Below, one piece after another: positions 6,509 to 62,446 of a stretch of DNA of 64,000 nt. The notes under the pieces were generated by a model. The model had not been told where the DNA came from. It did not search any database and was given only the letters and a program-made list of their open reading frames with translations. Every line of letters begins with the position of its first letter. The stretch's first letter is position 1. The translations under genes were made by a program, and so were the position numbers. Source of the stretch: an uncultured Clostridia bacterium (GTDB taxonomy: Bacteria > Bacillota > Clostridia > Oscillospirales > CAG-272); the NCBI GenBank assembly GCA_944381115.1, contig CALWJV010000015.1, positions 139,894 through 203,893 of the forward strand, written 5' to 3'.

Positions 6509-7558
6509 ATGAAACGAATACTAAATACTATGGAATTTAGAGATAAACTTAAAAGCGGATTATCGGGCGGATATATTTTTTTTGGTGAAGAGGAGTATTT
6601 AAAGCATTGTTACATAAAAGAAGTAAGAAAAAGCATTCTTGGGGAAGAGGATAACAGCGTATTTCGTCACAGGCGCGTGAGCGCTCTTGAATTTAACTCA
6701 GGTAAAATAAATGAGATTTTGATAACAAGTTCACTCGGTTTTTTTTCCGAGGGAAAAACGCTGTGTGAAATACATGAACTTGATTTTAAGGAGCGAACCG
6801 AGTCCGAAATTAAAGCGCTTTGCAATACGTTTTCAAACGCTGATCCAAACATAGTTTATATAATTTATACTACTCCGTATGAGTTTGATCCAGGTATTCT
6901 GCCGAAGTCGCCTTCAAAACTTTTACAACGGCTTTCAGAATATCTTACTCCGGTTAATTTTCAGAAAGAAAGCGACATAAAACTTGTAAAATGGGCGGCA
7001 AGACATTTTGCGGCGGAGAAACTTTCATATGAAAACGGAGTTTGTGAACTGCTGGTGGACCGTTCCGGAAGAGATATGTTTGTACTTTTAAATGAGATAG
7101 AAAAACTTTCTGCTTACGTTAAATTTTACGGAGAAGGGATTGTAAAAAAAGAACATGTAGAAACAGTTTCGAGCAGTAATCTTGAAATAAACGCATTTGA
7201 TTTTTCAAATGCAATAATTGGAGCGGACGCAGACAAAGCATGTCTGATCCTTTCGGATATGGAAAGAAGAAAGGAAAAGCCTATTAATATATTCGGAGCG
7301 GTTTCAAAGGTTATATCTGATCTTTATTCGGTCAAGATTCTTGTGGACAGCGGTGCAAATGATAAAGAGATAGCCGGGAAACTTAAAATTCACGAATATA
7401 AGGTGGGCATTTATAGAAAAAGCGCTGTAAAAAGAAGCCGTGAAAGATTAAAAAAACTTTTATCTCTTTGTGCACAGACAGATATTAAAATGAAAAGCAC
7501 ATCGCTCGGTGATTATACGGCTCTTGATAAACTTGTAATAATGGCATCTGTAAAATAA
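6509..7558 (+). CDS. holA: DNA polymerase III delta subunit
   Basis: AAAGGAGG SD before ATG 6509. The N-terminus ...GGYIFFGEEEYLK... is typical of HolA, and the size is about 349 aa. Confidence 0.75.
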   Translation: MKRILNTMEFRDKLKSGLSGGYIFFGEEEYLKHCYIKEVRKSILGEEDNSVFRHRRVSALEFNSGKINEILITSSLGFFSEGKTLCEIHELDFKERTESEIKALCNTFSNADPNIVYIIYTTPYEFDPGILPKSPSKLLQRLSEYLTPVNFQKESDIKLVKWAARHFAAEKLSYENGVCELLVDRSGRDMFVLLNEIEKLSAYVKFYGEGIVKKEHVETVSSSNLEINAFDFSNAIIGADADKACLILSDMERRKEKPINIFGAVSKVISDLYSVKILVDSGANDKEIAGKLKIHEYKVGIYRKSAVKRSRERLKKLLSLCAQTDIKMKSTSLGDYTALDKLVIMASVK

Positions 7559-7608
7559 CAAGAATATAGAAATTTTATAGCCGTAAAGGAAATAAAACGG
7601 AGACAAAA

Positions 7609-8364
7609 ATGAAACAATTTAAATTTAAATTCACAGTTGCGTCAAGTATTTTTTTTATAATGAGAAATGTCAAAAAGGCGAGGAAATATATTGCCGATAC
7701 CGAAAATTATTCTGATATTGACAGGTATAATTTTGCATGTAAAATCATCGAACATATGAGAAAAAGAAGCCGAACAACTACACTTGTTTTCGGAAAGAAA
7801 AATCTTCCGGAAAACGGCGGGTATATACTTTATTCAAATCATCAGGGGAAATATGATGCACTGGGAATACTTTTAAATCATCCCGGACCGTGCAGAGTTT
7901 TGTGGGAAAGAAAAGCTGCGAGTAAATATCTTGCAAAGGAATGTTGCGGTCTTGTTGGTGGACAAACTATTGATTTTGAGGATATAAAAGACTCAATACT
8001 GGTACTTAAGAAGATAGCTGAAGATGTACAGGAAGGCAAGAGGTATCTTATATTTCCGGAAGGCCGGTATGAGGGAAATAAAAATGAGATGCTGGATTTC
8101 AGGACGGGGTGTTTTTATTGTTCGCTTAAATCAAAGGCACCTATAATTCCGGTTGCAATTTATGATTCTTACAAAGCAATGGATATAAATAATATATTTA
8201 AAAAGGCAATAACCGAGGTTCATTACCTTTCACCTATATATTTTGAGGAATACGGAAAATTTTCAAAATCCGAAATTGCGGACCTTGTAAAGACAAGGAT
8301 AGCAGAAAAGATGAAGGAAATAAAATCAAGGCGTGAACCGTTACGTATTGAAAGCGGAAAGTAA
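7609..8364 (+). CDS. lysophospholipid (1-acyl-sn-glycerol-3-phosphate) acyltransferase family protein
   Basis: HX4D box (NHQGKYD) and FPEGRY box, as in PlsC-type acyltransferases. Confidence 0.75.
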   Translation: MKQFKFKFTVASSIFFIMRNVKKARKYIADTENYSDIDRYNFACKIIEHMRKRSRTTTLVFGKKNLPENGGYILYSNHQGKYDALGILLNHPGPCRVLWERKAASKYLAKECCGLVGGQTIDFEDIKDSILVLKKIAEDVQEGKRYLIFPEGRYEGNKNEMLDFRTGCFYCSLKSKAPIIPVAIYDSYKAMDINNIFKKAITEVHYLSPIYFEEYGKFSKSEIADLVKTRIAEKMKEIKSRREPLRIESGK

Positions 8365-8373
8365 AATCAAAAT

Positions 8374-8402
8374 AAAAAGGACTGAGTACTCAGTCCTTTT
8401 TA
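8374..8402. terminator. bidirectional rho-independent terminator
   Basis: Perfect hairpin AAAAAGGACTGAGT/ACTCAGTCCTTTTT with an A-run and a T-run, between convergent genes. Confidence 0.65.
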
Positions 8403-8456
8403 TTTATCCGGGAGAATAATATCAGATGATTATCGTGTGTTTGAGCTTTTTAAAAT

Positions 8457-8879
8457 TTACGTGTGTTGATCAACTGAAGTTTCTTTTTGAAAATTGTTTT
8501 CCGGTGTTTTTCCTTTTTGGATTACCGTTTCTTTTATTGCTTTTTGCTGTTTTAGAGTTATTTGTCCGTCGTCAAAGAGCCCGATTACATTATCAACCGG
8601 AAGAGAGAAAGCGATTCCCTGACCGGCTGTTTTAAGTCCGACCGCTTTATAAAGTGCATGGAGAATGTCATCTCTTATTATTTTTGGCACAAGAATCAAT
8701 ACAAGTTCTTTTTCCGGCTGGATCAAAATCTGAAAAAATTTTTCTGCTTCTTTGTTAGCGGTACCTCTGGCATGGATTACAGTGCCGCCTTTTGCTCCGA
8801 ATTCCTTAGCAGCATCCATTACGGTATCACTGAATCCTGCATTTACAATACATATGATAAGTTCATGAGAGTATTCCAT
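8457..8879 (-). CDS. P-II-like (GlnB-fold) signal transduction protein
   Basis: Ferredoxin-like beta-alpha-beta pattern: ELIICIVNAGFSDTVMDAAKEFGAKGGTVIHARGT...LVLILVPK...GQGIAFSLPV. There is a C-terminal extension of about 35 aa. Confidence 0.6.
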   Translation of the reverse strand: MEYSHELIICIVNAGFSDTVMDAAKEFGAKGGTVIHARGTANKEAEKFFQILIQPEKELVLILVPKIIRDDILHALYKAVGLKTAGQGIAFSLPVDNVIGLFDDGQITLKQQKAIKETVIQKGKTPENNFQKETSVDQHT

Positions 8880-8894
8880 AATTTCAATCCTTTC

Positions 8895-9326
8895 TTATTT
8901 ATTTTCAAGAGTCATCCTATTATTACTCAGAAATTGGTAAATGGCGACACCGACGGTACCGGTCAATGGAACTGTATATGCAATTCCTTTGCCGTTTTTT
9001 ATGGTACTAAATTTTTTTTCTAAGACCGATAATGCTTCGTTAACCTTATTTTCCTGTATAACGCTTAATATAACAGCCTTATCAGAATCTGAAAGTCCGA
9101 GAACTCGAAGAGTTTCAGTATTTGCCGTACCGTTACCGTATACATAAAGTTGCATATTAACATCAAAGTTTTGAAGCAGGTCGATATAGAATTCCGCCTT
9201 GCTCCTATTAACTATGGTAAATAAAAGTTTTAATTTTTGAGGAGCGGTTTTTGGAATACTTCGGGAATTTTTCGGTAAAGTTTTTTTATCAGTTGCTTTT
9301 CGCAAAATTTTTTTATTTTCATTCAT
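8895..9326 (-). CDS. P-II-like protein, second paralogue with a basic N-terminal tail
   Basis: Core LLFTIVNRSKAEFYIDLLQNF...YVYGNGTA...AVILSVIQ...GKGIAYTVPL. It is preceded by about 35 Lys/Arg/Pro-rich residues. Confidence 0.5.
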   Translation of the reverse strand: MNENKKILRKATDKKTLPKNSRSIPKTAPQKLKLLFTIVNRSKAEFYIDLLQNFDVNMQLYVYGNGTANTETLRVLGLSDSDKAVILSVIQENKVNEALSVLEKKFSTIKNGKGIAYTVPLTGTVGVAIYQFLSNNRMTLENK

Positions 9327-9364
9327 ATATATTTTTCCTCTTAAAAATAACGAATATCTGAATA

Positions 9365-10885
9365 TTACATAAAGTTAATAATTTGCTCATCATCTGCACC
9401 AAGAATACGTTTAATGGCTATATTTTCTCTTACTTTTTTAGTTATAATTCCTTTAAAACCCAAGATTTGAATTGTGATAAGAGGAGTCATTGCGACCATT
9501 GCAACTATACCGAATGCATCACCCATTATTTTGCTTTCTCCGTGAAGCGTGTAACAAACACCAATAGCAAGGGGAAGAATGAACGTTGAGGTAAGAGGAC
9601 CGCTGGCAACACCACCGGAGTCAAATGCAATTGCGGTATAAAGTTTAGGAACAAAAAAAGAAAGACCTAGAGAAATAAAGTAGCCTGGGATAAGGTAATA
9701 AAGTATGCTGAAATCAAGGATTATGCGGAGCATTGAAATTCCGATTGAAATTCCGACGCCGATTGAAAGCGCAAAAAGCATTGAGCGTTTTGTAACGGTG
9801 CCGTTTGTTATTTCCTCAACCTGTTTATTTAATACATGAATGGCAGGTTCAGCCAGAACAACAACTGCGCCTATTACAAAACCAAAAATAACAACACTTA
9901 CCGGACTGTTTTTTGCAAGTATTTCACCTATTTTGTAGCCAACAGGCATAAAACCTATGTTTACTGCGGTTAAAAAAACAACAAGTCCGATAAAGGTATA
10001 AACGATTCCAACAGTTATCTGATAAAGTTTCTTTTTAGGAAGTTTTAAAAATATCATTTGAAGAACAGTAAAGAAGACTATAATAAGACTTAGTGCGATT
10101 GCAACTTCCTTTGTTTTTTCAAATAAAGTTTTAAATATGGTCAACGGAGAGGTATCTACGGGGTAATTGGGTGTACCGTAATCAATATTACCGTTTGCTC
10201 CTATACCGAGTAACATAACAGCCAGGATAGGACCTACCGAACACATGGATACAAGGCCGAAACTGTTTTCACTGGCATTTTTTCCGCCGATAGTTGTAGC
10301 AATACCGACACCGAGAGCCATTATAAACGGGACGGTTATCGGACCGGTTGTAACTCCGCCTGAATCAAATGCGAGAGGGAGGAAACCCGAATTTCCGTTT
10401 ATAACTGTAAGAGATGTCAGAGCAAAAAGAATCATGTAGAAGAACATTAAAAGAGAAGACAGATTTACTTTAAATATAATTTTAAATACTACCAAGACAA
10501 GGAAAAGGCCTACTCCAGCACCGACTGCAAATATAAGCAGAGTAGAATTCATTATTGAAGATACCTGTTCAGCCAAAACGGTAAGATCGGGTTCCGCAAT
10601 AGTTATGAGAAGTCCCATGAGAAAGCAGACAGATAAAAGGAGTTTTAGACTTTTTGATTTTGCAAGTCCTGACCCTACATGTTCTCCCATAGGTGTCATT
10701 GCGAGATCGGCGCCGAGGTTGAAAAGTCCGATTCCAAATATCAAGAATACAGCGGAAATTAAAAATAAGAAAATATCATTTCCGAGCGAGATCAGAGGAG
10801 TTAAGTTAAGAATAAAAACTATAAGTGTTATCGGAAAAACCGAAACAAAGGCCTCTGTAATTTTTTTAAATAGAATATTTTTCAA
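9365..10885 (-). CDS. DUF1538 family integral membrane protein (two fused DUF1538 repeats)
   Basis: The signature AFDSGGVTTGPITVPFIMALGVG appears in the first half and AFDSGGVASGPLTSTFILPLAIG in the second. The protein is polytopic and hydrophobic throughout. Confidence 0.6.
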   Translation of the reverse strand: MKNILFKKITEAFVSVFPITLIVFILNLTPLISLGNDIFLFLISAVFLIFGIGLFNLGADLAMTPMGEHVGSGLAKSKSLKLLLSVCFLMGLLITIAEPDLTVLAEQVSSIMNSTLLIFAVGAGVGLFLVLVVFKIIFKVNLSSLLMFFYMILFALTSLTVINGNSGFLPLAFDSGGVTTGPITVPFIMALGVGIATTIGGKNASENSFGLVSMCSVGPILAVMLLGIGANGNIDYGTPNYPVDTSPLTIFKTLFEKTKEVAIALSLIIVFFTVLQMIFLKLPKKKLYQITVGIVYTFIGLVVFLTAVNIGFMPVGYKIGEILAKNSPVSVVIFGFVIGAVVVLAEPAIHVLNKQVEEITNGTVTKRSMLFALSIGVGISIGISMLRIILDFSILYYLIPGYFISLGLSFFVPKLYTAIAFDSGGVASGPLTSTFILPLAIGVCYTLHGESKIMGDAFGIVAMVAMTPLITIQILGFKGIITKKVRENIAIKRILGADDEQIINFM

Positions 10886-10914
10886 ATTTTGACTCCTTTT
10901 ACAGAATATAAAAA

Positions 10915-11523
10915 TTATTTTTCCAATATTTCAAATAAATAATCTTTAAGTGCTTGTGTATTTCCGTCAAAAAGATATGTATTTATACCGTAATTTTTTG
11001 CACCGGCGATATTTTTCGGATTATCATCAATAAAAATACTTTCTTCTTTTTTTATTTTACACTCACTGCAAAGTATGTCAAATATTTCTTTATTTGGTTT
11101 AACGACGCCGTAGTCGGCGGACATTATACATTTGTCAAAAAAAGAGAGTATGGGTATCTCGTTTCTATGCTGGCTAAAAGATTTTGAAATATTTGATAAA
11201 AGAAAAAGTTTAACGCCAAATTTTTTTTTGATACCGGTTATTAATTCACGGATCCCATCTGTTTCGGGCAGATTATATAACCAATTTTTATAGATTTTTT
11301 CTGCGACGGGGTGGAGTCTTTCGGGAAGACGTGAGCAGACTTCTTTTATAAGTTCTTCGTCCGAAATGGTACCAAGATCCAGTTTGTCCCAATAAATACG
11401 GTCAAAAACCGTTTTTTGCAAAAGTTTAGAGTCTGAAAAGTCCGTGACATATTTTTCTGTCATATATTCGGGGTCAAATTTAACCAGGACCTGGCCAAAA
11501 TCAAAAATAATATTTTTTATCAT
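10915..11523 (-). CDS. HAD superfamily hydrolase (subfamily IA-like phosphatase)
   Basis: Motif I IIFDFGQVL, motif II LLSN, motif IV FIDDNPKNIAGA. Confidence 0.75.
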   Translation of the reverse strand: MIKNIIFDFGQVLVKFDPEYMTEKYVTDFSDSKLLQKTVFDRIYWDKLDLGTISDEELIKEVCSRLPERLHPVAEKIYKNWLYNLPETDGIRELITGIKKKFGVKLFLLSNISKSFSQHRNEIPILSFFDKCIMSADYGVVKPNKEIFDILCSECKIKKEESIFIDDNPKNIAGAKNYGINTYLFDGNTQALKDYLFEILEK

Positions 11524-11631
11524 ATAAACACCATACTGTACTAAAATTATTTAAAAAGTATCAGTTAAAATACCGTTGGGTATATTAACGGAATTTCAAT
11601 TAAAAATCAAACAAATTTGTATTTTATACTT

Positions 11632-30670: not shown

Positions 30671-33307
30671 TCAGAATTGCTTCAGCGCGTTTTCTGTGGC
30701 GGAAAGCATATCGCTGTATTTTTTCAATTTTTCTCTCTCACCTTCGATAACAGTAGCAGGAGCCTTTGCAACAAATCCTTCATTTGAAAGTTTCTTTTCT
30801 ATTCTTTCGATTTCGGAGAGAAGTTTTTCTTTTTCTTTTGTAAGACGTGCAGTTTCTTTTTCAATGTCCACAACATCTGAAAGGGGAATATAAAGTGTTG
30901 CATTTGACGTAACTATCTTAATGTCGCTGTTACTGTCGTAAGAAGAAGTTATCCGTACTTCAGATGCGGATGAAAGTTTTTCAAAAAATGATCCGCATCT
31001 ATTGTCAAATGTATCATTATCGGTTGTAACAATGGTAAGTTTTGCTTTTCTTGACGGAGGAACATTCATTTCAGCACGTCTGTTACGAATTGATTTTATA
31101 CAGAAAATTATACATTCGATTTTAGATTCGTCCCGTGAAAAGTCAAGATCAGGTCTGTAAACCGGCCATTCACTGATAACAATGCTTTCACCTTTATGAG
31201 GAAGTGACTGCCAGACTTCTTCAGTAATAAAAGGCATATAAGGGTGAAGAAGTTTCATGGTTTCACTGAATACATAAGCGATAACACGCATTGCGATTTT
31301 GTCACCGGCGCTGAGCCTTTGTTTTACAAGTTCGATATACCAATCGCAGAATACCTCCCAAACAAAATCGTAAAGTTTTGCAAGAGCGATACCAAGTTCG
31401 TATTTATCCAGATTTTCAGTTACATCTTTGGTCAAACGGTTAAATTTTGAAATTATCCATTTGTCTTCGGTCGCAAGGAATGAGATTTCCGGTAGACCAA
31501 ATGGAGTATCTTCGTCAAGTTTCATTAGTACGAATCTTGCCGCGTTCCAAATTTTATTGTTAAAGTTTCTCGCTGATTCGATTTTTTCATCTAAAAAGCG
31601 CATGTCATTTCCCGGGGAATTACCGGTTGCAAGAGAAAAACGAAGAGCATCCGCGCCGTATTTATCAATGATCTCTAACGGATCAATGCCGTTTCCAAGT
31701 GATTTAGACATTTTTCTGCCTTTTGCATCTCTAACAAGTCCGTGCATGAATACGGTAGAAAAAGGTACTTCTTTCATTTGTTCAAGCCCGGAAAATATCA
31801 TCCTTGCGACCCAGAAGAAAATGATATCATATGCGGTTACGAGTACACTTGTTGGGTAGTAATAAGAAAGGTCTTCAGTTTTTTCCGGCCATCCGAGTGT
31901 GGAAAAAGGCCAAAGGGCAGAAGAAAACCAAGTATCAAGGACATCGCTGTCTTGTGTGACTTTTCCGCCGCACTCCGGACAGGTCGTAATGTCTGTTTTG
32001 GAAACTGTCATTTTTCCGCATTTTTCGCAGTAAAATGCAGGAATACGGTGTCCCCACCAAAGTTGACGGGATATACACCAGTCGAGAACATTTTCCATCC
32101 AGTTAATATATATTTTGGAAAATCTGTCAGGTTCAAATTTAACTGTTCCGTTTTTGACAACTTCAAGAGCCGGTTCCGCAAGAGGTTTCATTTTGACGAA
32201 CCACTGATCAGATGTTATCGGTTCGACTGTCGTTTTACAGCGGTAGCAGGTACCGACATTGTGTGTATGTGCCTCTGTTTTTACGAGAAATCCACCTTCT
32301 TCAAGATCTTTAATTATTTCTTTTCTTGCTTCATAACGGTCAAGTCCGTAATATTTTCCTTTGTAACTTATTGTTGCATCGTCTGCAAGGACTCTTATCT
32401 GAGGTAGTCCGTGGCGTTTTCCGACTTCGAAGTCATTTGGATCGTGAGCGGGGGTGATTTTAACGCAACCCGTTCCGAAGTCCTTTTCAACATATTCATC
32501 GGCGATAACCGGAATTTCCCTGTTTGCAAGAGGGAGTATAAGAGTTTTACCGATTACATTTTTGTATCTTTCATCGTCAGGATGAACAGCAACCGCAGTG
32601 TCTCCGAGCATGGTTTCGGGACGTGTAGTTGCAACAGTGAGGTAACCGCTTCCGTCTTTAAAAGGATATCTTATGTGCCAAAAAAAGCCGGCTTGTTCCT
32701 CATATTCGATCTCAGCATCGGAAAGGGCAGTTATACAGTGAGGACACCAGTTTATTATTCTGTTTCCGCGGTATATAAGTCCCTTTTCGTAAAGGTTAAC
32801 GAAAACCTCACGGACCGCCTTTGAGCACCCCTCATCCATTGTAAAACGTTCACGTGACCAATCGCAGGATGCACCGAGTTTTTTAAGTTGGCTAACGATT
32901 CTGGAGCCATATTTGTTTTTCCAATCCCAAACACGATCAAGAAATTTTTCGCGTCCGAGATCGTATCTTGTAACACCCTCGTTAACGCGAAGGTTTTCTT
33001 CGACTTTTATCTGTGTGGCGATACCGGCGTGGTCTGTACCCGGAATCCAAAGTGCGGAGAATCCCTGCATTCTTTTATAACGTATAATAATGTCCTGAAG
33101 AGTTTCGTCAAGTGCATGTCCCATGTGAAGTTGACCGGTAACGTTCGGAGGCGGTATAACTATTGTAAACGGTTTTTTTCCTTTTTTGATATCATTTGCT
33201 GTATCCGGGGTAAAATAACCTTTTTCGCACCAAAGTGAGTAAAGTTTATCTTCAGTAGCAGAAGGATCATAGGTTTTTTCAAGTTCTTTTTTCAATGTGT
33301 TCTCCAT
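30671..33307 (-). CDS. valS: valine--tRNA ligase
   Basis: HIGH-type motif ([10 protein letters not shown]), KMSKS, a CP1 editing domain and a C-terminal coiled coil. Size 878 aa. Confidence 0.95.
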
Positions 33308-33471: not shown

Positions 33472-33729
33472 AAAAAAAGTCCGTCTCGAAAAATAACGGG
33501 ACGGACAAAAATGTTCGTGGTACCACCCGAATTCATCACATTGTGATGCGCTCGATTCTTTAACGCAGAAATACGTATATTCTCCCGAATATAAACTCCT
33601 CGGCGACTTTCCGAAACAAAGTATCTGCGAAAATTCCACCAAACGGACAAATAATCATCCGGTTTTCGCTCTCTGTAAGGCTTATGCTTCGTACTTTTCC
33701 GAATCAAAGTTTTTATAATAAATTGATAA
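33472..33729 (-). promoter_or_regulatory. T-box leader, valine specifier (GUC)
   Basis: Read on the minus strand. AGAGA bulge next to helix GCGAAAA/UUUUCGC. Specifier loop has AAAAGUA on the 5' side and GAAAGUCG on the 3' side, with GUC at 33607-33605. T-box sequence AAUUCGGGUGGUACCACG at 33535-33514. Terminator GUCCGUC...GACGGAC plus a U-run at 33506-33472. Confidence 0.8.
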
Positions 33730-39870: not shown

Positions 39871-42800
39871 ATGAAAGCAAAAACCAGAATTTTGGCAATA
39901 TTGCTTACCGTGTTGATGGTCGGTGGACTTCTTCCGCTGTCTATTTTTGCAGCTGGTGGCGAAAAGGCAGGAACGTCATCTCCGAACGTTCCGAAAATTG
40001 AGCCTGATGAAATGACATTGGAGGATATTAATAAAGAGTTTGCCGAATCAAATCTTAGCCTTGCTGTTTATCAAGACTTTGATAAATGGCAGATGGATGA
40101 AGGTAGCACAGAATATGTGTTGCCTGCTGAAAGTTTTGTAGCGATAGGTACAAATGCTGATGTAGGAGGCAGTCTAATAAATGTAAAGAATGTCAAGCAA
40201 GTTTTTTCTATTAGAAAAGAAGCAGACGGCAATAAAGCCCTTTATATGGGAACTGCATCAAAAGGTGCAAATAATAACGACAACTTTATTGATATAGGGT
40301 TCGGTCTTCCTCATACATTTTCAAGTCAACAGGGAAACGGAACACATGATTTATACATAAGCGCCGATTTTAAAATGGACGGCAAAAATATAATAGCGCC
40401 AAATGACGGTATTTTCGGACTGCTTTACAGAATAAATAACGGAACACCTTCCATTATTAATACCGTAAGTGTGTCCGAAGTCGGAGGACTTTATATAGGT
40501 GGGTCTCAGAGTCCGGATAATCTTATAGGATTTCTTTCTTCTGAAGAATATACAAGATTGGCTGTTTCAATTGATAGGTTATCAAATAAATATTATGTAT
40601 ATGTAAACGGCGTTCTTGCTAATCCTGAAGGAACCGTACTTTTTTCAAATAAAGTTATCAATGATATGAATAGCAATAATCAAACAGGTAACGGAGTAAC
40701 ATATACTGCGCAGAATTTACCTATTTGTAATATCAGGATGTATACCGTTGAAAACAATATAAATTCTGATGAACATAAGGGATTATACATAGATAACATT
40801 CTTGCAGGTGCACGTCTTGCAGTCAGTGCAAGAGATAACGCATTCCGGGATGTATATACATCCTCTTTCCCGGCTAACCTTGTAGGTACAAATGTAAGCG
40901 TTCCGCTTCCCGGAACAACTTCAAATACAATAGGAGTCATTTGGCCGGGAGCAATAACTTATATTCAGGATGAAGAGGGCGATGTCGCGATGCAGTGGCA
41001 CTATATGCCCAGAGATACTACAACAGATAAAGACCAAGCATATTTCCAGATAGGAAACAATGCCGCACGGGGAGCAAATCTGAGGTTGAGTATGGATTTA
41101 AAACTTGGCGCAGATGGAGTTCTAGGTAGCAGTGATTTTATATTTTACCGTTCAAGTGTAAAAGGAAATACTCAGGAAATTACCGTAAAACTTGAATCAA
41201 ACGGAAATATAGTTTGTGACAATAATGTACTTGGTACAATCACGAAGGAAAAATACAGCAACTTAAGAATTGATATAATATGTAATGCTATCAGCGGGAA
41301 TTCTGTATTTGCACTTATGTTTTTCGATGATATATTGGTATATACAAAATCATTTACTTTAAGTTATGCTGGTACTAACGGTTACGGAAGTACAGATTTC
41401 CATCCGGCTCTCATTCGTATATATTCAATATATGACAACGGAGTTGAACAACTTAAACCAAATGACTTAATATTGAAAAATCTGTCTTTGGTTGAAACAG
41501 AAGATTACAACGATTCCGGATTAATAAGTATATTTGAAAAGAACCCGGAAGGATTTGCCGAAAATGCTGGAATTACCCGTTATTACGGTGAAGAGGGAGT
41601 ATATGTATCTGATTTTGAATATAACGGCGAAAAATACATTGTTGGATACAACGGAATAATAATCGGAAAAGAGTCTGACGGTATAGAGTTTGCACCTTAT
41701 GCACCTTACACCGATTGGGATCACACCGGAACAATGATTTATTCCGGACCAAACGGGGAATTTTTTACAGATTCAATTAATGGAGTCGGGCATACAATTT
41801 TTTCAAACAGAGATGGGTTTAGGAAAAAGGTTACGATGGATAATGGAGATGGAGCAGTACTTTACACATCGTACTATGATGCAGACCCGGGAACAAGTCC
41901 TTTGGACCACGCGTCATACTTGGCCCTTGATTTCCAAAACGGACTTAAAAATACATCTGTGGTAATAGACTTCGATGTAATGATGGGAGAATTTTTTGTA
42001 GAGCGACCCAATTCTAATCAGGCATTTATTTATTTAAAAGGACAGGAAACGGTCAATAACGGTGGCGGCAGAAAGGACTATGATTTCCCGATTTTCCTTA
42101 ACGGAGACGGATGGATTACCTATAACGGAGAAAAGGTATACAAGATAGGAAAAAGAGAGTTTACAAGATTTTCTATAGTAGTACACGGACCTCAGCTCGA
42201 TGGAGATAATCTTACAAAAGCATCCTGTATAGATATTTACGCAAACGGCGTACTTCTTGTTGAAGGACTTACGAATCCAAGTGGCGCAAAGTATCTACAG
42301 CAGATAAGAATGCTTAAGATATACGATGCGGATGCTGCAATGTACTACAAGGATATGTATATGTATTCGGGAGAGAAGCCGCAGCAGTTTATTTCTATGG
42401 TTAACGGTGTTCCGACTCTTACAGAAGATAATTCGCTTACACCTGCAGTTGCAAAAGACATTAAGTCTGGATTTGTATCGGAAAACGGCGTATTAAGATA
42501 TTACAGAGAAAACGGACTTCCGGTAATCGCGACGGAAAATAAAATTTCCTTTACTGACCAGAGCGGAAGAAATTTCAAGGCAGATGTAAACGGTGTCGTT
42601 TATAATGACGTCAATATCGAAGCACTTATAGATCCCGGACATTTCTCACTTGACTTTTCCGTTGATTTTGCCGGAATAGAGAGCGGTGATTACGTATATT
42701 CACCCGATGAGCCCAGAAATGCAAACAGTGTTTTCGGACTCATATTCAATCAACTTTATTTTAATGCAGGCGAATACGACGCAATAAAATTTGATGTGTA

Positions 42801-44829
42801 CATTCCGGAAAATACTATAAATGAAAACAGTGAGGCAACGTATAATTTTGAATTTGGCGAATCTCAGCGTTTTTATAAAGTAAAATGGCTTGGCGGAACA
42901 ACATATGAATTTGGAGACGGAACATATTTTATTGATGATGTAGATGTTCCTGAAGGAGCGATTGAGGTTGAAGCAACAGGAAGCGGATATACCCTTATAA
43001 ATGACCGTGGAGGAAAAAGAAATATCGTCTGCTTTGATACGGATGATGTAGAAGGTGTAAGTTATAATGATACATTTTATGTACGAACAAGAAATTACGT
43101 CAAAGTACTTGAAGGCAGTGCTTTCGGCGAATTGCAAGCCGGATGGAACACAATTGAGATACCGATCATAGAAAATGGAGAATACGATATAGATTACCTT
43201 TCATTTGTAGTAACACCGGCAATAGATGCTTCCGGAATCAAGATCGCTGCAGTAAAAATAGTAAAGAGTACGAGATTCGTAAAGAACGATGAAGCAGGTG
43301 ACGGAATCGGCTCCGACGGATGTTATTATAAATCCGGTATAGCCCAGACAGGTTGGATCGACGTAAACGACAACGGAGAAAATGATGCAGGTGATTACTA
43401 TGCAAGTCCGGATACAACTAAAATAGTAACCGGAATATATTCAATTGATGGAATTTGGTATAAATTCGACAATGACGGCAAACTTATCGGAAAAGCAAAC
43501 GGTATAGAATTTGCAAAGAACGGTGTTGATAAAGACGGAAACGTATATTATGCGTATAAGTCATTTGTTGACGGAGTTATCCAGACAGGACTTATTTCCG
43601 AAGGAGTAACCAACGGCTCAGGCGAAGCGGCAGTTATCTATACAACAGAAAAGGGCGTATCATTGCAAAATGTAGTAGAAAAGATAGGCGATGCAACATA
43701 CGACTTTGATAAAGATGGTTACGGAAAATTGCTTTGTGCAAACGAAGATGCTCACATTTACGGCGAACCTAAGGTTATCAAACTTGCAACATGTCAGGAA
43801 ACCGGATTAAGGGTATACGTATGTAATGTCTGCGGAAACGAAAAAACAGAAGACATACCGATTGATCCCAATAATCATGCCGAGTATGATGAGTCCGGAA
43901 TTGCAACATGCTGTGAGGGAGACGTTAAAGCAGACGGTGTAACATCTGTTTACGGGCACAGTCTTGTAATAGGTGAAAATATATCAATAGTATTTTATCT
44001 TGATATAACAGGAACGGAAGGTCAGATTGAAGTAGGTCGCAGAAGCGAGTTTATAAATGAAACAACGACAAAGGTTAACATTTCTGAACTTGAGGATGTG
44101 ACGATAGACGAAAAAACATATAAAAAGATATCTGTTTCAGTAGCACCTAATGCGGTCAATGCAGTTGTAACTGTACGTTACATAAGACCCGACGGAACGG
44201 AAGGATCATCTTACAACTACCAAACTCAAAAGTACATAGATGAGGTAATAAAAGACGGAGTTACAGGAGAGTTCAGTCAAGAAGTAATTGATCTTGTAAA
44301 AGCATTTGATGCATACGCAAAGAATGTAAATAAGGTTATATATAACGATGGCGAACCTGATGATATATCCGGTGTGGACGAAATAACCTTTGAGAGTAAT
44401 TATTCCGTAAAATACAGTTATAACCAAAAGAACGCAGAGACAAATTACATAAGGCTTGAAAAAACATACGAGAATATATACTTTAATTTTACCGATGCAA
44501 TGGTACTCAAAGTTAACTTTACTCTTACAGGTGTTTCCTCAGACTTTAAGTTTTATGTAAATGGCGAAGAAGTGAAAGGTGTACTGACCGCTGCCGGATA
44601 TCACTGCGTAGAAGTTGTCGTAAAAGCATCGGATATAGATGAACTCATAGAGATCAAGGTAGTCCATGCAGGTGGGTCAGAATTTACACTTTCTACAAGT
44701 GCTCTTGCTTTTGCAAAGCGTAAGTTTATGTCTTCCTCTGCTACAGATGCGGAAAAGAACCTGATGAAAGCAATTTATATGTATAATAAAGCAATTGTCT
44801 CTTTTTTGGCAGAGGATGCAGCAGAGTAA
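39871..44829 (+). CDS. 1,652-aa secreted multi-module surface/adhesin-like protein
   Basis: Signal peptide MKAKTRILAILLTVLMVGGLLPLSIFAAGG. At least three paralogous modules of about 200 aa. Cell-wall-binding-like aromatic/Gly repeats (e.g. GWIDVN...GIWYKFDNDGKLIG). Cys cluster CQETGLRVYVCNVCG...H...CC. No LPXTG motif and no C-terminal TM helix. Confidence 0.8.
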   Translation: MKAKTRILAILLTVLMVGGLLPLSIFAAGGEKAGTSSPNVPKIEPDEMTLEDINKEFAESNLSLAVYQDFDKWQMDEGSTEYVLPAESFVAIGTNADVGGSLINVKNVKQVFSIRKEADGNKALYMGTASKGANNNDNFIDIGFGLPHTFSSQQGNGTHDLYISADFKMDGKNIIAPNDGIFGLLYRINNGTPSIINTVSVSEVGGLYIGGSQSPDNLIGFLSSEEYTRLAVSIDRLSNKYYVYVNGVLANPEGTVLFSNKVINDMNSNNQTGNGVTYTAQNLPICNIRMYTVENNINSDEHKGLYIDNILAGARLAVSARDNAFRDVYTSSFPANLVGTNVSVPLPGTTSNTIGVIWPGAITYIQDEEGDVAMQWHYMPRDTTTDKDQAYFQIGNNAARGANLRLSMDLKLGADGVLGSSDFIFYRSSVKGNTQEITVKLESNGNIVCDNNVLGTITKEKYSNLRIDIICNAISGNSVFALMFFDDILVYTKSFTLSYAGTNGYGSTDFHPALIRIYSIYDNGVEQLKPNDLILKNLSLVETEDYNDSGLISIFEKNPEGFAENAGITRYYGEEGVYVSDFEYNGEKYIVGYNGIIIGKESDGIEFAPYAPYTDWDHTGTMIYSGPNGEFFTDSINGVGHTIFSNRDGFRKKVTMDNGDGAVLYTSYYDADPGTSPLDHASYLALDFQNGLKNTSVVIDFDVMMGEFFVERPNSNQAFIYLKGQETVNNGGGRKDYDFPIFLNGDGWITYNGEKVYKIGKREFTRFSIVVHGPQLDGDNLTKASCIDIYANGVLLVEGLTNPSGAKYLQQIRMLKIYDADAAMYYKDMYMYSGEKPQQFISMVNGVPTLTEDNSLTPAVAKDIKSGFVSENGVLRYYRENGLPVIATENKISFTDQSGRNFKADVNGVVYNDVNIEALIDPGHFSLDFSVDFAGIESGDYVYSPDEPRNANSVFGLIFNQLYFNAGEYDAIKFDVYIPENTINENSEATYNFEFGESQRFYKVKWLGGTTYEFGDGTYFIDDVDVPEGAIEVEATGSGYTLINDRGGKRNIVCFDTDDVEGVSYNDTFYVRTRNYVKVLEGSAFGELQAGWNTIEIPIIENGEYDIDYLSFVVTPAIDASGIKIAAVKIVKSTRFVKNDEAGDGIGSDGCYYKSGIAQTGWIDVNDNGENDAGDYYASPDTTKIVTGIYSIDGIWYKFDNDGKLIGKANGIEFAKNGVDKDGNVYYAYKSFVDGVIQTGLISEGVTNGSGEAAVIYTTEKGVSLQNVVEKIGDATYDFDKDGYGKLLCANEDAHIYGEPKVIKLATCQETGLRVYVCNVCGNEKTEDIPIDPNNHAEYDESGIATCCEGDVKADGVTSVYGHSLVIGENISIVFYLDITGTEGQIEVGRRSEFINETTTKVNISELEDVTIDEKTYKKISVSVAPNAVNAVVTVRYIRPDGTEGSSYNYQTQKYIDEVIKDGVTGEFSQEVIDLVKAFDAYAKNVNKVIYNDGEPDDISGVDEITFESNYSVKYSYNQKNAETNYIRLEKTYENIYFNFTDAMVLKVNFTLTGVSSDFKFYVNGEEVKGVLTAAGYHCVEVVVKASDIDELIEIKVVHAGGSEFTLSTSALAFAKRKFMSSSATDAEKNLMKAIYMYNKAIVSFLAEDAAE

Positions 44830-44903: not shown

Positions 44904-44947
44904 ATTCGGGGTGCAATTTAAAATGAATTGCACCCCGAATTTCTTTT
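44904..44947 (+). terminator. strong rho-independent terminator
   Basis: 15-bp perfect stem ATTCGGGGTGCAATT/AATTGCACCCCGAAT followed by TTCTTTT. Confidence 0.75.
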
Positions 44948-45006: not shown

Positions 45007-45035
45007 TTGAGTTAAAATATTTTATGCTATATAAT
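45007..45035 (+). promoter_or_regulatory. sigma-A type promoter (TTGAGT-17-TATAAT)
   Basis: TTGAGT at 45007-45012, 17-nt spacer, TATAAT at 45030-45035. Confidence 0.5.
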
Positions 45036-45072
45036 TAATTTAAATTATTAAATTTTTACGGAGGGGAAAACT

Positions 45073-45777
45073 ATGTTTTTGTTAAAAATGGCAGAACAGA
45101 CATTTTTAATAAATAATAAGTTTGAATATGTAAAAAAACTTTGTAAAAATTATATTGTCAACGAAAATAATGATGAAAACGTGCCTGCCATAGAAGTGAC
45201 GAAGCAAGAAATAATAAAAGAAGACCCGGATGGTCAAGGGCTTTCTTTGGCATACCTTGAAAGCCTTGCAATATACAGAAAAATATGTGAGCTTGTTTCC
45301 AAAAACGAAACCTTTCTTTTCCACTGCTCAGCAATAGCATTTGACGGAGCGGGGGTACTTTTTACTGCACCGAGCGGTACGGGGAAATCAACACATGCAA
45401 GATTATGGACAGAGTATTTTAAAGAACGTGTTAAAGTTGTAAATGATGATAAGCCGCTTATTCGTTTAAAAGATGACGGTGTTTATGTTTATGGTACACC
45501 ATGGTGCGGAAAGCACGGTATAGAAACAAATATGAGTGTTAAAATAAAAGCGGTGGTGGTTATTGAGCGTGGAAAAGAAAACAGCATTGAAAAACTTGAT
45601 TTTGAAGAGGGATACCCTGTGTTATTTGCACAAACATATCGCCCGGTAAGTGAATCAGGGATGCAAGCATTTCTCAGATTTTTGAATCGTTTTTCAGAAA
45701 GTGTGGATATGTACAGACTTAAATGTAACATATCGAAAGAAGCGGTAACTGTGGCACATGGTGCGATATTCAATTAA
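45073..45777 (+). CDS. HPr kinase/phosphorylase-like P-loop protein (HprK-related/ScmC-like)
   Basis: HCSAIAFDGAGVLFTAPSGTGKSTHARLW followed by VVNDD mimics the catalytic core of the HprK C-terminal domain. Confidence 0.5.
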   Translation: MFLLKMAEQTFLINNKFEYVKKLCKNYIVNENNDENVPAIEVTKQEIIKEDPDGQGLSLAYLESLAIYRKICELVSKNETFLFHCSAIAFDGAGVLFTAPSGTGKSTHARLWTEYFKERVKVVNDDKPLIRLKDDGVYVYGTPWCGKHGIETNMSVKIKAVVVIERGKENSIEKLDFEEGYPVLFAQTYRPVSESGMQAFLRFLNRFSESVDMYRLKCNISKEAVTVAHGAIFN

Positions 45778-45800
45778 AAAATAGTACGGAGAAAAATATT

Positions 45801-46067
45801 ATGAAACTTAAAAGCGGAGTTATAATGGAAAAAGCGGGTGACGGATATATAGCGGTTGCTACCGGAGAAGCAAGCAAGACATTTAACGGATTTATCCGAA
45901 ATAATAAGACAGCGGATTTTATATTCCGTCAACTTACAGATGAAAAGACTGAAAAGGAAATAGTACAGGCAGTGCTTGAAAAATACGATGTTTCTGAAGA
46001 AGTGGCCGAAAGAGATGTCAAAATGGTCGTTGAAAAAATAAGAAGAGCCGGTCTGCTTGATGAATAA
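45801..46067 (+). CDS. PqqD-family peptide-binding protein (RiPP recognition element-like)
   Basis: 88 aa, with N-terminal beta strands and then a helical bundle ...TADFIFRQL...EKEIVQAVLEKYDVSEEVAERDVKMVVEKIRRAGLL. Confidence 0.65.
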   Translation: MKLKSGVIMEKAGDGYIAVATGEASKTFNGFIRNNKTADFIFRQLTDEKTEKEIVQAVLEKYDVSEEVAERDVKMVVEKIRRAGLLDE

Positions 46068-46488
46068 GAGTATAGAAGAAATATTGGAAAAAAGCGGGAA
46101 GCATTGGCAGACAACTGTCGGTGACAGTATGCAGCCGATGCTCAGGGACAGAAAGAATATCGTAGAGATAGTAAAGCCTCAGCGCGCGCTGAAACGTTAT
46201 GACCTTCCGCTTTATAGGCGGCCTAACGGAAAATATGTTTTACATAGAATATTAAAGGTAAAAAAAGATTATTACATAACCTGCGGAGATAACAGATATC
46301 ACCGTGAAAAAGTTCCAAAAGAATGGATTGTCGGTGTTGCGTCGGGATACTATAAGAACGGAAAATTTATACCGGAAAAAAATTTTAAATACCGTTTATA
46401 CGTTCATATCTGGTGTGATTTTTTTTATATACGTGCCGGATTGCTTTTTATAAAAAACAGAATAAAAAGGTTGATAACAAAAAATTAA
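46060..46488 (+). CDS. S24/S26-fold serine peptidase, SipW/Sec11-like Ser-His variant, no N-terminal TM helix
   Basis: GDSMQPML (nucleophile box), VLHRIL (His where bacterial SPase I/LexA have Lys) and CGDN. There is a hydrophobic C-terminal segment. ATG 46060 overlaps the upstream stop by 8 nt. Confidence 0.55.
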   Translation: MNKSIEEILEKSGKHWQTTVGDSMQPMLRDRKNIVEIVKPQRALKRYDLPLYRRPNGKYVLHRILKVKKDYYITCGDNRYHREKVPKEWIVGVASGYYKNGKFIPEKNFKYRLYVHIWCDFFYIRAGLLFIKNRIKRLITKN

Positions 46489-46546: not shown

Positions 46547-46694
46547 AAAAACGTTAAGCCGTTTTAGAATATTGAAGAAGTTTTAAAAACGGTTAAAGAG
46601 ATAATTGTTTGAAAGGAGGACGTACAATCGTTAAAAACAGTTAAACGGGCAAAATCCCGTGAATCATTTTTAAACGTTTTGTACTAAAGGAATA

Positions 46695-47245: not shown

Positions 47246-47677
47246 TTACCATTCTCCGATACTGAATTCGTCTTCGGTGAATTTGCTCATCACTCCTTCA
47301 AAGAAGGATATATCTATATCGGAGTAAATAGTAATATACATCTCCGTGCCATAATGGGTGCTGCAAATATCGCAAAGATCATTTTTGACATTGATGGTAA
47401 AATACTTTGTCATTTTGTTATAAAGTTCTTTGTATTTGGGATTTTCGTCCATCAGTTCTGCAACAAGCTCGTCTGTAACGATGGCTGATATAGAAACCTC
47501 GTTGCCTGTGTATCGGTGGCTTTTTTCGTAATGCTTGGCGTGAGAAATATCTTCAATTTCTTCTTTCCAACAGCGTATTTCAACTCTGTCTCCGACTTTG
47601 ACAAAATGAGCAATAATTGCTTTCCACCATTCCGAAGAAACGTGAGAGTCTATCATTTGAATTGAATAGTTTTTCAT
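47246..47677 (-). CDS. hypothetical protein (143 aa)
   Basis: GAGGAAATATA SD before the ATG at 47677. The protein is soluble and acidic. No motif recognised. Confidence 0.45.
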   Translation of the reverse strand: MKNYSIQMIDSHVSSEWWKAIIAHFVKVGDRVEIRCWKEEIEDISHAKHYEKSHRYTGNEVSISAIVTDELVAELMDENPKYKELYNKMTKYFTINVKNDLCDICSTHYGTEMYITIYSDIDISFFEGVMSKFTEDEFSIGEW

Positions 47678-47850
47678 TATATTTCCTCGTTTGCTTGAAA
47701 TATTTGAATAAAGCAGGTTTATTTTGATATATAAGAATAAACCAAATTCCAATTTGGAGAACACTATCAATGTGTGTCCACACATATTATATGCGGTTTT
47801 TGCATTATTTTCAAGATGGTATGCTGGGATTTATCGCATTAAAGTGTAAC

Positions 47851-61493: not shown

Positions 61494-62204
61494 ATGAAAA
61501 GAAAAATACGCTTTTTAACAGCAGTTTTTGCCTTTTTAAGTGTTTTGACTTCAATGCCGTTTTCGGTAAATGCCGCACAAGCAGAAAGCGGAGTAGAGTA
61601 TAGAATAAGCGATGACGGAACATATGTTATTATTACCGGGATCACAGAAGAATTTCCATCGGTTAAAATCGAATCGGAAATAGAAGGACTTCCGGTAAAG
61701 GAGATTGCCGCATCAGCATTTCAAAATAAATACTCCCTTTATACAATAGAAATACCGGACAGTGTAACGGTTATAGGTGAGGCGGCGTTCCGAAACTGCC
61801 GAAGCCTTGTATCTGTCCGACTTCCGGCAGGCCTTAAAGAACTTAAAATGGATACGTTCAGGGACTGTTCCGTATTAAGCAGTATAACGCTTCCCAGTAC
61901 ACTTGAAACCATAGGAGATTTTTGTTTTCAGGGTTGCATAAAACTCGGAAAACTGACAATTCCAGCGTTGGTAAATGAGATAGGGTACGACGCCTTTATG
62001 GAGTGTGAGAGCATCATGCTTAATGTCAAAGAGAACGCATATGCCGCCGAATATGCCGCGGCAAACAACGTAAACACCGAATTTTCCGGAACCGGCACAT
62101 ATTTCTTTCTTATGATGACACTTGGAACGGTCGTCCTTTTTGCGGCGGTATTTTTTGTTATCTTTATAGCAAAAAAGATCATAAAAAAGTCTTCCGGTAA
62201 ATAA
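61494..62204 (+). CDS. BspA-type leucine-rich-repeat surface protein, membrane anchored
   Basis: Signal peptide ending in VNA|AQ. Repeats of the form IPDSVTVIGEAAFRNCRSL / LPAGLKELKMDTFRDCSVL / LPSTLETIGDFCFQGCIKL. C-terminal TM plus a KKIIKK stop-transfer sequence. Confidence 0.7.
   Translation: MKRKIRFLTAVFAFLSVLTSMPFSVNAAQAESGVEYRISDDGTYVIITGITEEFPSVKIESEIEGLPVKEIAASAFQNKYSLYTIEIPDSVTVIGEAAFRNCRSLVSVRLPAGLKELKMDTFRDCSVLSSITLPSTLETIGDFCFQGCIKLGKLTIPALVNEIGYDAFMECESIMLNVKENAYAAEYAAANNVNTEFSGTGTYFFLMMTLGTVVLFAAVFFVIFIAKKIIKKSSGK

Positions 62205-62369: not shown

Positions 62370-62446
<77 letters not shown>

Follow-up and report, generated by a model that had tools for sequence, protein, structure and literature searches.

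The stretch analyzed here, 64,000 nucleotides of DNA from an uncultured Clostridia bacterium (contig CALWJV010000015.1, positions 139,894–203,893; hereafter the window), carries three tightly packed genes on its forward strand. They encode an ScmC-like P-loop protein (ORF1; 45073–45777, 234 amino acids [aa]), a PqqD-type recognition element for ribosomally made, post-translationally modified peptides (RiPP recognition element [RRE]; ORF2; 45801–46067, 88 aa), and a putative S26-like Ser/His(/Asp) endopeptidase (ORF3; 46060–46488, 142 aa). With a probability of roughly 0.72, we read this trio as the enzyme core of a widespread, uncharacterized leader-dependent peptide-maturation system of gut and rumen Clostridia. 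An earlier note, made from the letters of the window alone, had proposed a module for the phosphorylation and cleavage of a peptide or protein, and we judge a peptide-directed modification and cleavage module to be the best reading of the trio. A literature search returned no description of such a system.

Identity of the three proteins

By its profile match, ORF2 is clearly a PqqD domain (PF05402; 54.0 bits against a cut-off of 23.4, E = 2.1e-14, profile positions 4–67 of 67), as the earlier note had supposed. Its best NCBIfam match is the lasso PqqD chaperone model (2.8e-11, below the cut-off), and among solved structures the lasso B1 proteins TfuB1 and TbiB1 come closest, each with a weak E-value. 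The NCBIfam models ScmD and PqqD_rel_X score 14.7 against a cut-off of 100 and 13 against a cut-off of 35, respectively. We regard ORF2 as a putative leader-peptide docking protein; it co-occurs with a family of leader-bearing peptides, which is described below.

ORF1, in which the motifs APSGTGKST and VVNDD are present, has 3,754 relatives in the database. Pfam family PF27840 (named ScmC) is found on the window protein (P0121) and on 120 of 120 ORF1 relatives among the matches listed. The best NCBIfam match is the ScmC equivalog (TIGR04249; E = 1e-5). Because ORF1 scores 25.1 against a cut-off of 125 in this comparison despite the PF27840 match, we assign it to the broad Pfam ScmC family and not to the SynChlorMet equivalog. 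The match to Hpr_kinase_C (PF07475) is not significant (13 bits against a cut-off of 33.3, E = 0.076), and the models for HPr kinase/phosphorylase (TIGR00679) and HprK_rel_A score 13.4 against 240 and 13.7 against 200. A PDB sequence search with ORF1 was uninformative.

The AlphaFold2 (AF2) model of ORF1 is confident (predicted local distance difference test [pLDDT] of 93), and its 80 PDB matches in Foldseek at E ≤ 1e-3 are all phosphoenolpyruvate carboxykinase (PEPCK) or HprK/P. Invariant in the ORF1 family are H84, S86, the P-loop S101–H108 (G102-x-G-K-S-T107), N124-D-D-K-P128, and G141-T-P-W-x-G-K147, so that ORF1 has, on a PEPCK-like fold, the P-loop, the His upstream of it, and the DD motif (D125-D126). 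The model supports the view of ORF1 as an HprK/PEPCK-fold protein, and we consider it a putative ATP-dependent kinase acting on PqqD-bound peptide. The label 'HprK-like' in the earlier note is upheld by the fold but not by the PF07475 profile.

ORF3, in which GDSMQPML and VLHRIL are present, has 2,046 relatives in the database. Its AF2 model (pLDDT of 86) retrieves lambda cI, LexA, UmuD, SpsB, and SipA in Foldseek; repressor C-terminal domains are the top matches, and the highest TM-score belongs to SipA of Streptococcus pyogenes (4n31; TMq of 0.49). Signal peptidase I (4nv4) is matched at E = 0.014. In 30 homologs, Ser24 (in GDSMxP), His63 (in V-L-H-R-I), Arg64, and Gly77-Asp78 (in CGDN) are invariant. 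ORF3 therefore does not have the Ser-Lys dyad of Peptidase S24 (LexA/UmuD), since the invariant His63 stands at the general-base position, and it has the Ser, His, and Asp catalytic residues of S26B signal peptidases. Profile scores are low throughout: 13.7 against a cut-off of 23.3 for PF00717 (S24), 14.3 against 190 for the SipW model NF046067, and 23.3 against 51.85 (E = 4.8e-5) for TIGR02228, which is the best NCBIfam match. ORF3 has no N-terminal membrane anchor, and its first 20 residues are hydrophilic in the hydropathy profile. The earlier description of ORF3 as an anchorless S26-like Ser-His protein is borne out by the fold, by Ser24 and His63, and by the missing anchor, but the TIGR02228 and PF00717 matches that it called for lie below threshold.

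The sole hydrophobic stretch of ORF3 is a C-terminal amphipathic helical hairpin (Kyte–Doolittle hydropathy over 19 residues [KD19] of 1.0–1.8), which is broken by a conserved Asp and a conserved Arg. Within residues 112–126 of this hairpin (window positions ~46393–46437), Y112, Y115, and R126 are invariant, and H117, C120, and D121 are nearly so. Because these polar residues are conserved, the hairpin is probably more than a membrane anchor and may serve as a docking or metal-binding element.

Proteins of the ORF3 type also occur as fusions. The S26-like domain is joined to PqqD in P0396 (RRE before peptidase, the order of fused lasso B proteins), to ScmC in P0409, and to NTP_transf_5 in P0393, P0418, and P0504, and it forms the N-terminus of an ATP-binding cassette (ABC) exporter in P0384. 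ORF3 has a net charge of +19, and the peptides of the cassette-linked family are strongly acidic. Given the fusions, the missing anchor, and this charge complementarity, we hypothesize that ORF3 is most likely a cytoplasmic leader peptidase whose action is coupled to export.

Gene neighborhoods, linked peptides and large surface proteins

Relatives of ORF3 are spread over 435 species of the genome collection, and a profile search run exhaustively retrieved 6,386 representative ORF3-like proteins. We compared 80 fetched and 12 metagenomic loci; in 47 loci, the flank was long enough to examine the neighbors. The order ScmC-PqqD-S26-like is the rule among the loci compared. Where the flank suffices, ScmC and PqqD are each found in 41 of the 47 loci, an ABC exporter (ABC_membrane plus ABC_tran, without a C39 domain) in 34, and NTP_transf_5 in 28; the exporter and NTP_transf_5 genes usually come after the trio. 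The trio is therefore strongly syntenic across relatives. The earlier note had seen neither exporter nor precursor gene, which is true of the window but wrong for the system as a whole, where exporters accompany most of these loci and peptides are encoded in 49 of ~82 non-redundant loci. Their absence is a peculiarity of the window clade and not of the system.

No lasso cyclase is encoded in the window or in the gene orders of the 80 loci, and the unassigned ORFs that were scanned are not cyclases. Neither is there a transglutaminase-like B2 protein inside the cassettes; Transglut_core occurs only within some of the secreted large proteins. The window operon has no radical S-adenosylmethionine (radical-SAM) gene, and such a gene is inserted in the cassette in two of the 80 loci (L045, 10741–12135; L065, 2591–3958). 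The peptide cores of these two loci are rich in Cys (e.g. GGDPGDGSGCVGECP and PSIGDGGCED), which suggests thioether-type variants; we take the inserts as a sign that the system is RiPP-like in character.

Two loci (L019 and L020) are present in a cultured type strain, [Ruminococcus] torques ATCC 27756. One has the order big protein-peptide-S26-like-ScmC-PqqD (in L020, big protein 7218–9671, peptide 9696–9824, S26-like 10001–10429, ScmC 10561–11283, and PqqD 11341–11607), and the other consists of big protein, peptide, and S26-like gene alone. Some cassettes also contain a gene for a TraX-family membrane protein (L001–L004, 8723–9442; L032; L071), which lies between ScmC and PqqD in L001–L004 and L032.

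The peptides encoded beside the cassette are acidic and 30–75 aa in length, and 61 of them were found in the 49 loci. They share a leader of ~24 aa, M-K-E-x-Y-x-x-P-E-M-E-V-[IV]-x-F-x-x-E-D-V-I-T-T-S, which is followed by a hypervariable acidic tail. The family comprises at least 6,619 clusters in a database of 5.8 billion proteins and is without a Pfam match; scans of the peptides with NCBIfam and Pfam matched no model, and the sole label from any source among the 120 peptide clusters listed is 'hypothetical protein'. In its N-terminal half, the leader aligns with published clostridial lasso leaders (PMC7533575, Table 3; hhalign P-value = 1.3e-4), and 52 per cent of the leaders outscore the 99th percentile of shuffles in this comparison. 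In the peptide cores, the conserved ring-forming pattern (Gly1 plus Asp/Glu7-9) is not seen.

Searches that started from the peptide led back to the cassette in L095 and L096 and also found modules of a large protein and a peptide with no trio nearby (L093, L094). In L097 and L098 (~7267–8626), genes for a secreted protein of 239 aa, a peptide of the EDVITTS family, and a lipoprotein of 144 aa directly follow phage terminase, portal, and capsid genes, so that the system's cargo part appears to be carried by a prophage. L087 has the EDVITTS module fused into the interior of a lipoprotein of 180 aa.

Many loci of the window type additionally encode what we call tether proteins, whose genes lie between the peptide gene and ScmC (L005, 7586–7990; L012, 9420–9866; L093, 8326–8856; L095, 8179–8610; also in L017, L022, L026, L038, L043, L051, L078, L082, and L087). 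These are lipoproteins or transmembrane-anchored proteins of 130–215 aa with a low-complexity linker rich in Ser, Thr, Asp, Asn, and Lys and a C-terminal tail of the form ...[VI]ELP[FIV][VI]Pxx; many peptide cores end in the same motif. Pfam and NCBIfam gave no informative match for the tether proteins, and there is no tether gene in the window.

Immediately upstream of the trio, the window encodes a large secreted protein of 1,652 aa (39871–44829, forward strand) with an N-terminal signal peptide of the ordinary Sec type (KD19 of 2.5 at residues 7–25). The protein has no Pfam or NCBIfam match and no recognizable domain. Its C-terminal ~318 aa (residues 1330–1646; nucleotides 43858–44808) nevertheless form a domain that ends such proteins in ~20 independent loci, and a BLAST comparison places 46 of 99 upstream proteins, the window protein included, in one cluster; a PDB sequence search with this domain was uninformative. 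Because the C-terminal domain recurs beside the cassette, we count the 1,652-aa protein, on these sequence comparisons, as part of the system.

The link between large proteins and peptides is close. The peptide gene follows a large same-strand ORF with a median gap of 33 nucleotides (33 of 55 gaps are ≤60 nucleotides), and the pairing is kept even when the pair is opposite in strand to the cassette. Moreover, the type of C-terminal domain corresponds to the type of core: the window-type (cluster-1) domain pairs with [DE][LTV]P-type cores (9 of 13), a type of ~590 aa with NGG...F[DE][DE]LFPGL cores (7 of 11), and a type of ~1,100 aa with LxNGG...[YF][ST][DE][VL]F cores. Other large proteins are heterogeneous, with Transglut_core in some and Big_2 with F5_F8_type_C, or GLUG repeats, in others (L034, 474–2234; L058, 5410–8814; L020, 7218–9671; L093, 4539–7985). 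Since the genes are tightly coupled and the C-terminal domain co-varies with the core, that domain probably has the mature peptide as its ligand or partner.

The earlier note had named the 1,652-aa protein as the sole secreted candidate substrate nearby. Its connection to the system is confirmed, but the role is better cast differently: with an ORF3 that most likely resides in the cytoplasm and a large protein that carries a Sec signal peptide, the latter more probably partners the mature peptide than serves as a cleaved substrate. When the large protein and its orthologs were searched for an embedded leader-like segment, the hidden Markov model (HMM) matches were noise only.

Elsewhere in the window, directly after tgt, lies a gene for a 236-aa BspA-type LRR_5 protein (61494–62204, forward strand) that resembles the LRR_5 proteins encoded after the peptide gene in L001 and L093 (phmmer, 3.4e-8). 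The LRR_5 proteins of L001 and L093 carry a C-terminal transmembrane helix; the window LRR_5 gene is without an adjoining peptide gene.

Proposed mechanism, alternatives and known systems

In the mechanism that we propose, the PqqD protein would bind the leader at its YxxPx[ML]E strand and present the peptide to ORF1, which would phosphorylate a hydroxyl residue of the peptide; T-T-S provides the sole conserved candidates. The PqqD protein would also hand the peptide to ORF3, and the leader would be removed on the cytoplasmic side. The predicted cut after T-T-S would place Thr at −2 and would be in line with the small −3/−1 rule of S26 enzymes. Where present, NTP_transf_5 would decorate the peptide further, and the ABC exporter would secrete it. 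ORF3 would thus fill the niche of the lasso B2 protein or that of the C39 domain in peptidase-containing ABC transporter (PCAT) exporters. Parts of this scheme have precedents: the B1 protein of the bsf lasso cluster, which is of the PqqD type, aids an HprK-like kinase as well as the leader peptidase (PMC10368454), and Firmicute lasso precursors are tailored by HprK-like kinases and nucleotidyltransferases (N), with N sometimes fused to B2 (PMC8498205).

The window copy is a reduced version of the system, with the large protein and the trio only. The order efp-large protein-trio-rpmE is shared by the window and at least four related species, and no tether, ABC exporter, or NTP_transf_5 gene is found in the 64-kb window or in the loci of close relatives. 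The trio is nonetheless under strong purifying selection. In comparisons with relatives, the ratio of nonsynonymous to synonymous changes is ~0.11–0.13 for ORF1 (dN/dS) and 0.08–0.20 for ORF2 and ORF3 (pN/pS), against ~0.4–0.46 for the large protein; synonymous sites are saturated in the trio comparisons, and the three ORFs are intact and compact in at least four diverged species. Because the trio is under purifying selection though no peptide is encoded in the window, its substrates are most likely peptides from other parts of the genome, on which it would act in trans. Such an action is plausible since peptide modules without a trio exist, as in L093, and since the arrangement in R. torques ATCC 27756 is split.

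Several observations weigh against our interpretation. The profile matches of ORF1 and ORF3 to named families lie below the curated cut-offs. A search of the window in six frames (regular expression plus leader HMM) found no peptide of the family, with a best E-value of 0.46 (the positive controls of the leader HMM gave 1e-13 to 1e-17), and no family peptide was found in the 20-kb loci of close relatives. The C-terminal hairpin of ORF3 is borderline hydrophobic (at the KD19 values given above), and ORF3 may have an unusual topology with its catalytic domain outside the cell. Each of the ORF3-type fusions was examined in one to three metagenome proteins, and some fusions could be gene-calling artifacts. 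As for the chemistry, we infer that ORF1 is an active kinase, which residue is modified, where the cut falls, and that the conserved N-terminal part is removed, and the lasso register (YxxPxL at −17 to −12) would put the cut before T-T-S.

These observations leave room for other explanations, of which the most serious dispenses with a separate peptide. In the window clade, the trio could act directly on the adjoining 1,652-aa protein, with ORF3 processing or chaperoning it, in the manner of SipW for TasA or of a signal-peptidase-like pilus chaperone (SipA/LepA), the PqqD protein docking a segment of it, and ORF1 phosphorylating it before export. In favor of this, the window and at least four related species have no system-linked gene beside the trio other than that of the large protein, whose C-terminal domain family is found together with the cassette, the top TM-score of ORF3 is that to SipA (4n31; TMq of 0.49), and the EDVITTS lipoprotein of L087 indicates that the recognition module can sit in a Sec-exported protein. 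We consider direct action improbable, however, given an ORF3 without signal peptide or N-terminal anchor, fusions of its type to the cytoplasmic partners PqqD, ScmC, NTP_transf_5, and the N-terminus of an ABC exporter, and a large protein that has an ordinary Sec signal peptide and, like its orthologs, no detectable leader-like segment. A terminator and a separate promoter also separate the large-protein gene from the trio.

The absence of the peptide, the ABC exporter, and NTP_transf_5 from the window and its close relatives, combined with a lasso-like leader and a lasso-like PqqD protein, could alternatively mean that the trio is a decaying, non-functional remnant of a lasso cluster or of a fuller RiPP cluster. 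This is very unlikely in view of ORFs that have remained intact in at least four diverged species, at ratios of ~0.1–0.2 and with saturated synonymous sites. Nor is the system as a whole a degraded lasso cluster, because neither cyclase nor B2 occurs in any of the 80 loci. We give hardly any credence to the idea that the trio is a regulatory or signaling module in which an HprK-like kinase/phosphorylase controls a LexA-like self-cleaving protein. The folds of ORF1 (HprK) and ORF3 (the C-terminal domain of LexA and lambda cI) would suit it, but ORF3 has no DNA-binding domain and has His instead of Lys at the general-base position, and the genes are linked to PqqD, ABC exporters, NTP_transf_5, radical-SAM enzymes, and leader-bearing peptides.

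The leader-dependent peptide-maturation system that we favor has its closest counterparts in the Firmicute lasso clusters (paeninodin pade, pseudomycoidin psm, and bsf). Both have a PqqD-type RRE (B1) and an HprK-like kinase (K), in most cassette loci also an NTP_transf-type enzyme (N) and an ABC exporter (D), and a precursor leader with the [YW]xxPx[LIM]E motif. As in bsf (PMC10368454), one RRE would serve both kinase and leader peptidase, and as in lasso clusters (PMC8498205), fusions of the peptidase with the RRE or with N occur. Unlike lasso clusters, the cassettes have no cyclase (C) and no transglutaminase-like B2, in whose place stands the S26-like Ser/His peptidase. The cassette leader is ~5 residues longer and ends in an invariant D-V-I-T-T-S, the cores are without the Gly1...Asp/Glu7-9 ring pattern and without a conserved C-terminal Ser, and the precursor genes are coupled to genes of large surface proteins. 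By analogy, the system resembles the K-B1-B2(-N-D) part of phosphorylated Firmicute lasso pathways while lacking the cyclase and the B2 protein that define a lasso pathway.

With the S26B signal peptidases (SipW, Sec11, and archaeal signal peptidase I), ORF3 shares the fold, the GDSMxP box, the His in V-L-H-R-I, and the G-D-N box. It differs from them in scoring below the TIGR02228 cut-off, in lacking an anchor, in its conserved C-terminal hairpin (YVHxWCDFFxxR), in its cytoplasmic context (RRE, kinase, and fusion to the ABC N-terminus), and in its presumed substrate, a non-Sec leader. In PCAT or ABC transporter maturation and secretion (AMS) exporters, which combine C39 with an ABC exporter and act on double-glycine leaders, leader removal is coupled to ABC export, as it apparently is here, and the S26-like domain of P0384 occupies the position of C39 at the exporter N-terminus. 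The differences are that the protease is a Ser/His S26-like enzyme and not a Cys C39 enzyme, that the leader has no GG motif, that the cassette adds a separate RRE and kinase, and that the window is without an exporter.

SynChlorMet (ScmC/ScmD) and HPr-rel-A likewise pair an HprK-related P-loop protein with a PqqD-family protein. Unlike the members of those systems, the trio scores far below the equivalog cut-offs (ScmC, ScmD, HprK_rel_A, and PqqD_rel_X), and the radical-SAM partners ScmE and ScmF of SynChlorMet are absent from the window operon, with radical-SAM inserts confined to the two loci mentioned above. An S26-like peptidase is not known to be part of the SynChlorMet or HPr-rel-A systems. 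The sequence comparisons thus place the system outside SynChlorMet, HPr-rel-A, HprK/P, LexA-type S24, and signal peptidase I as their equivalog models define them. We read it as a variant of RRE-guided peptide maturation with a new type of leader peptidase and a new precursor family, in which chemistry and role are inferred from the evidence above.

If this reading is correct, an uncharted peptide-maturation system is common in gut and rumen Clostridia, a Ser/His S26-like enzyme joins the leader peptidases that work with a PqqD-type recognition element, and the lasso pathways have a cyclase-free relative. The system would also connect secreted small peptides with the large surface proteins of commensals, R. 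torques among them, offer a testable handle on the anchoring or regulation of poorly annotated giant proteins, and account for thousands of 'hypothetical protein' and 'S24/S26 family peptidase' annotation labels. A more speculative extension, which we hold to be doubtful, is that the cassette is no natural-product pathway of the usual kind but a new way to equip cell-surface proteins: it would mature and export short acidic peptides whose cores evolved jointly with the large protein's C-terminal domain, and peptide and tether tail would be competitors for that domain or complements to it. Should that be so, the peptides would control the anchoring, release, or activation of surface proteins, some of them with transglutaminase, Ig-like, or discoidin domains, in gut Clostridia and in at least one prophage.

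Expression signals and other features of the window

The large-protein gene is closed by an intrinsic-terminator-like hairpin with a T-run (44904–44940, forward strand; a 17-bp stem with 7 GC), and equivalent hairpins are visible in L008, L009, and L013. The trio is preceded by a sigma-70-like promoter, TTGAGT-17-TATAAT (45007–45035, forward strand), which is a consensus match only (10 of 12 positions) and the top-scoring promoter-like site on the forward strand of the region. ORF1 and ORF2 are separated by 23 nucleotides, and ORF2 and ORF3 overlap by 8 nucleotides (46060–46067). The earlier note had reported this arrangement of terminator, promoter, and three packed ORFs, together with the gap and the overlap, and all of these are present. 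For ORF3, the ORF finder gave an alternative TTG start at 46057 (143 aa); the ATG at 46060 (142 aa) is the likely start because P0001, a database protein 99 per cent identical to ORF3, begins with MNKS.

A spacer of 206 nucleotides lies between the ORF3 stop and the ATG of rpmE (46695), a gene that also follows the trio in relatives. Downstream of ORF3, there is no strong terminator and only a weak 5-bp stem (46645–46660). The promoter and the ~200-nucleotide spacer agree with the self-contained operon of the earlier note, the missing terminator does not; the operon is plausible, and because of that missing terminator, transcription may read through into rpmE. Near the operon, Rfam detected no RNA element when the window was scanned. 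Compared with PADLOC and PHROGs, the trio returned no match and is therefore no known defense or phage family.

Between rpmE and a P-type ATPase gene lies a 179-aa ORF without a Pfam match (47246–47785, reverse strand), which is not at the same position in the relatives L008 and L009. Farther away, the window contains a T-box leader (33494–33716, reverse strand; 123 bits) upstream of a valS-like gene (30671–33307) and a tRNA gene (62370–62443, forward strand; 70 bits in Rfam).

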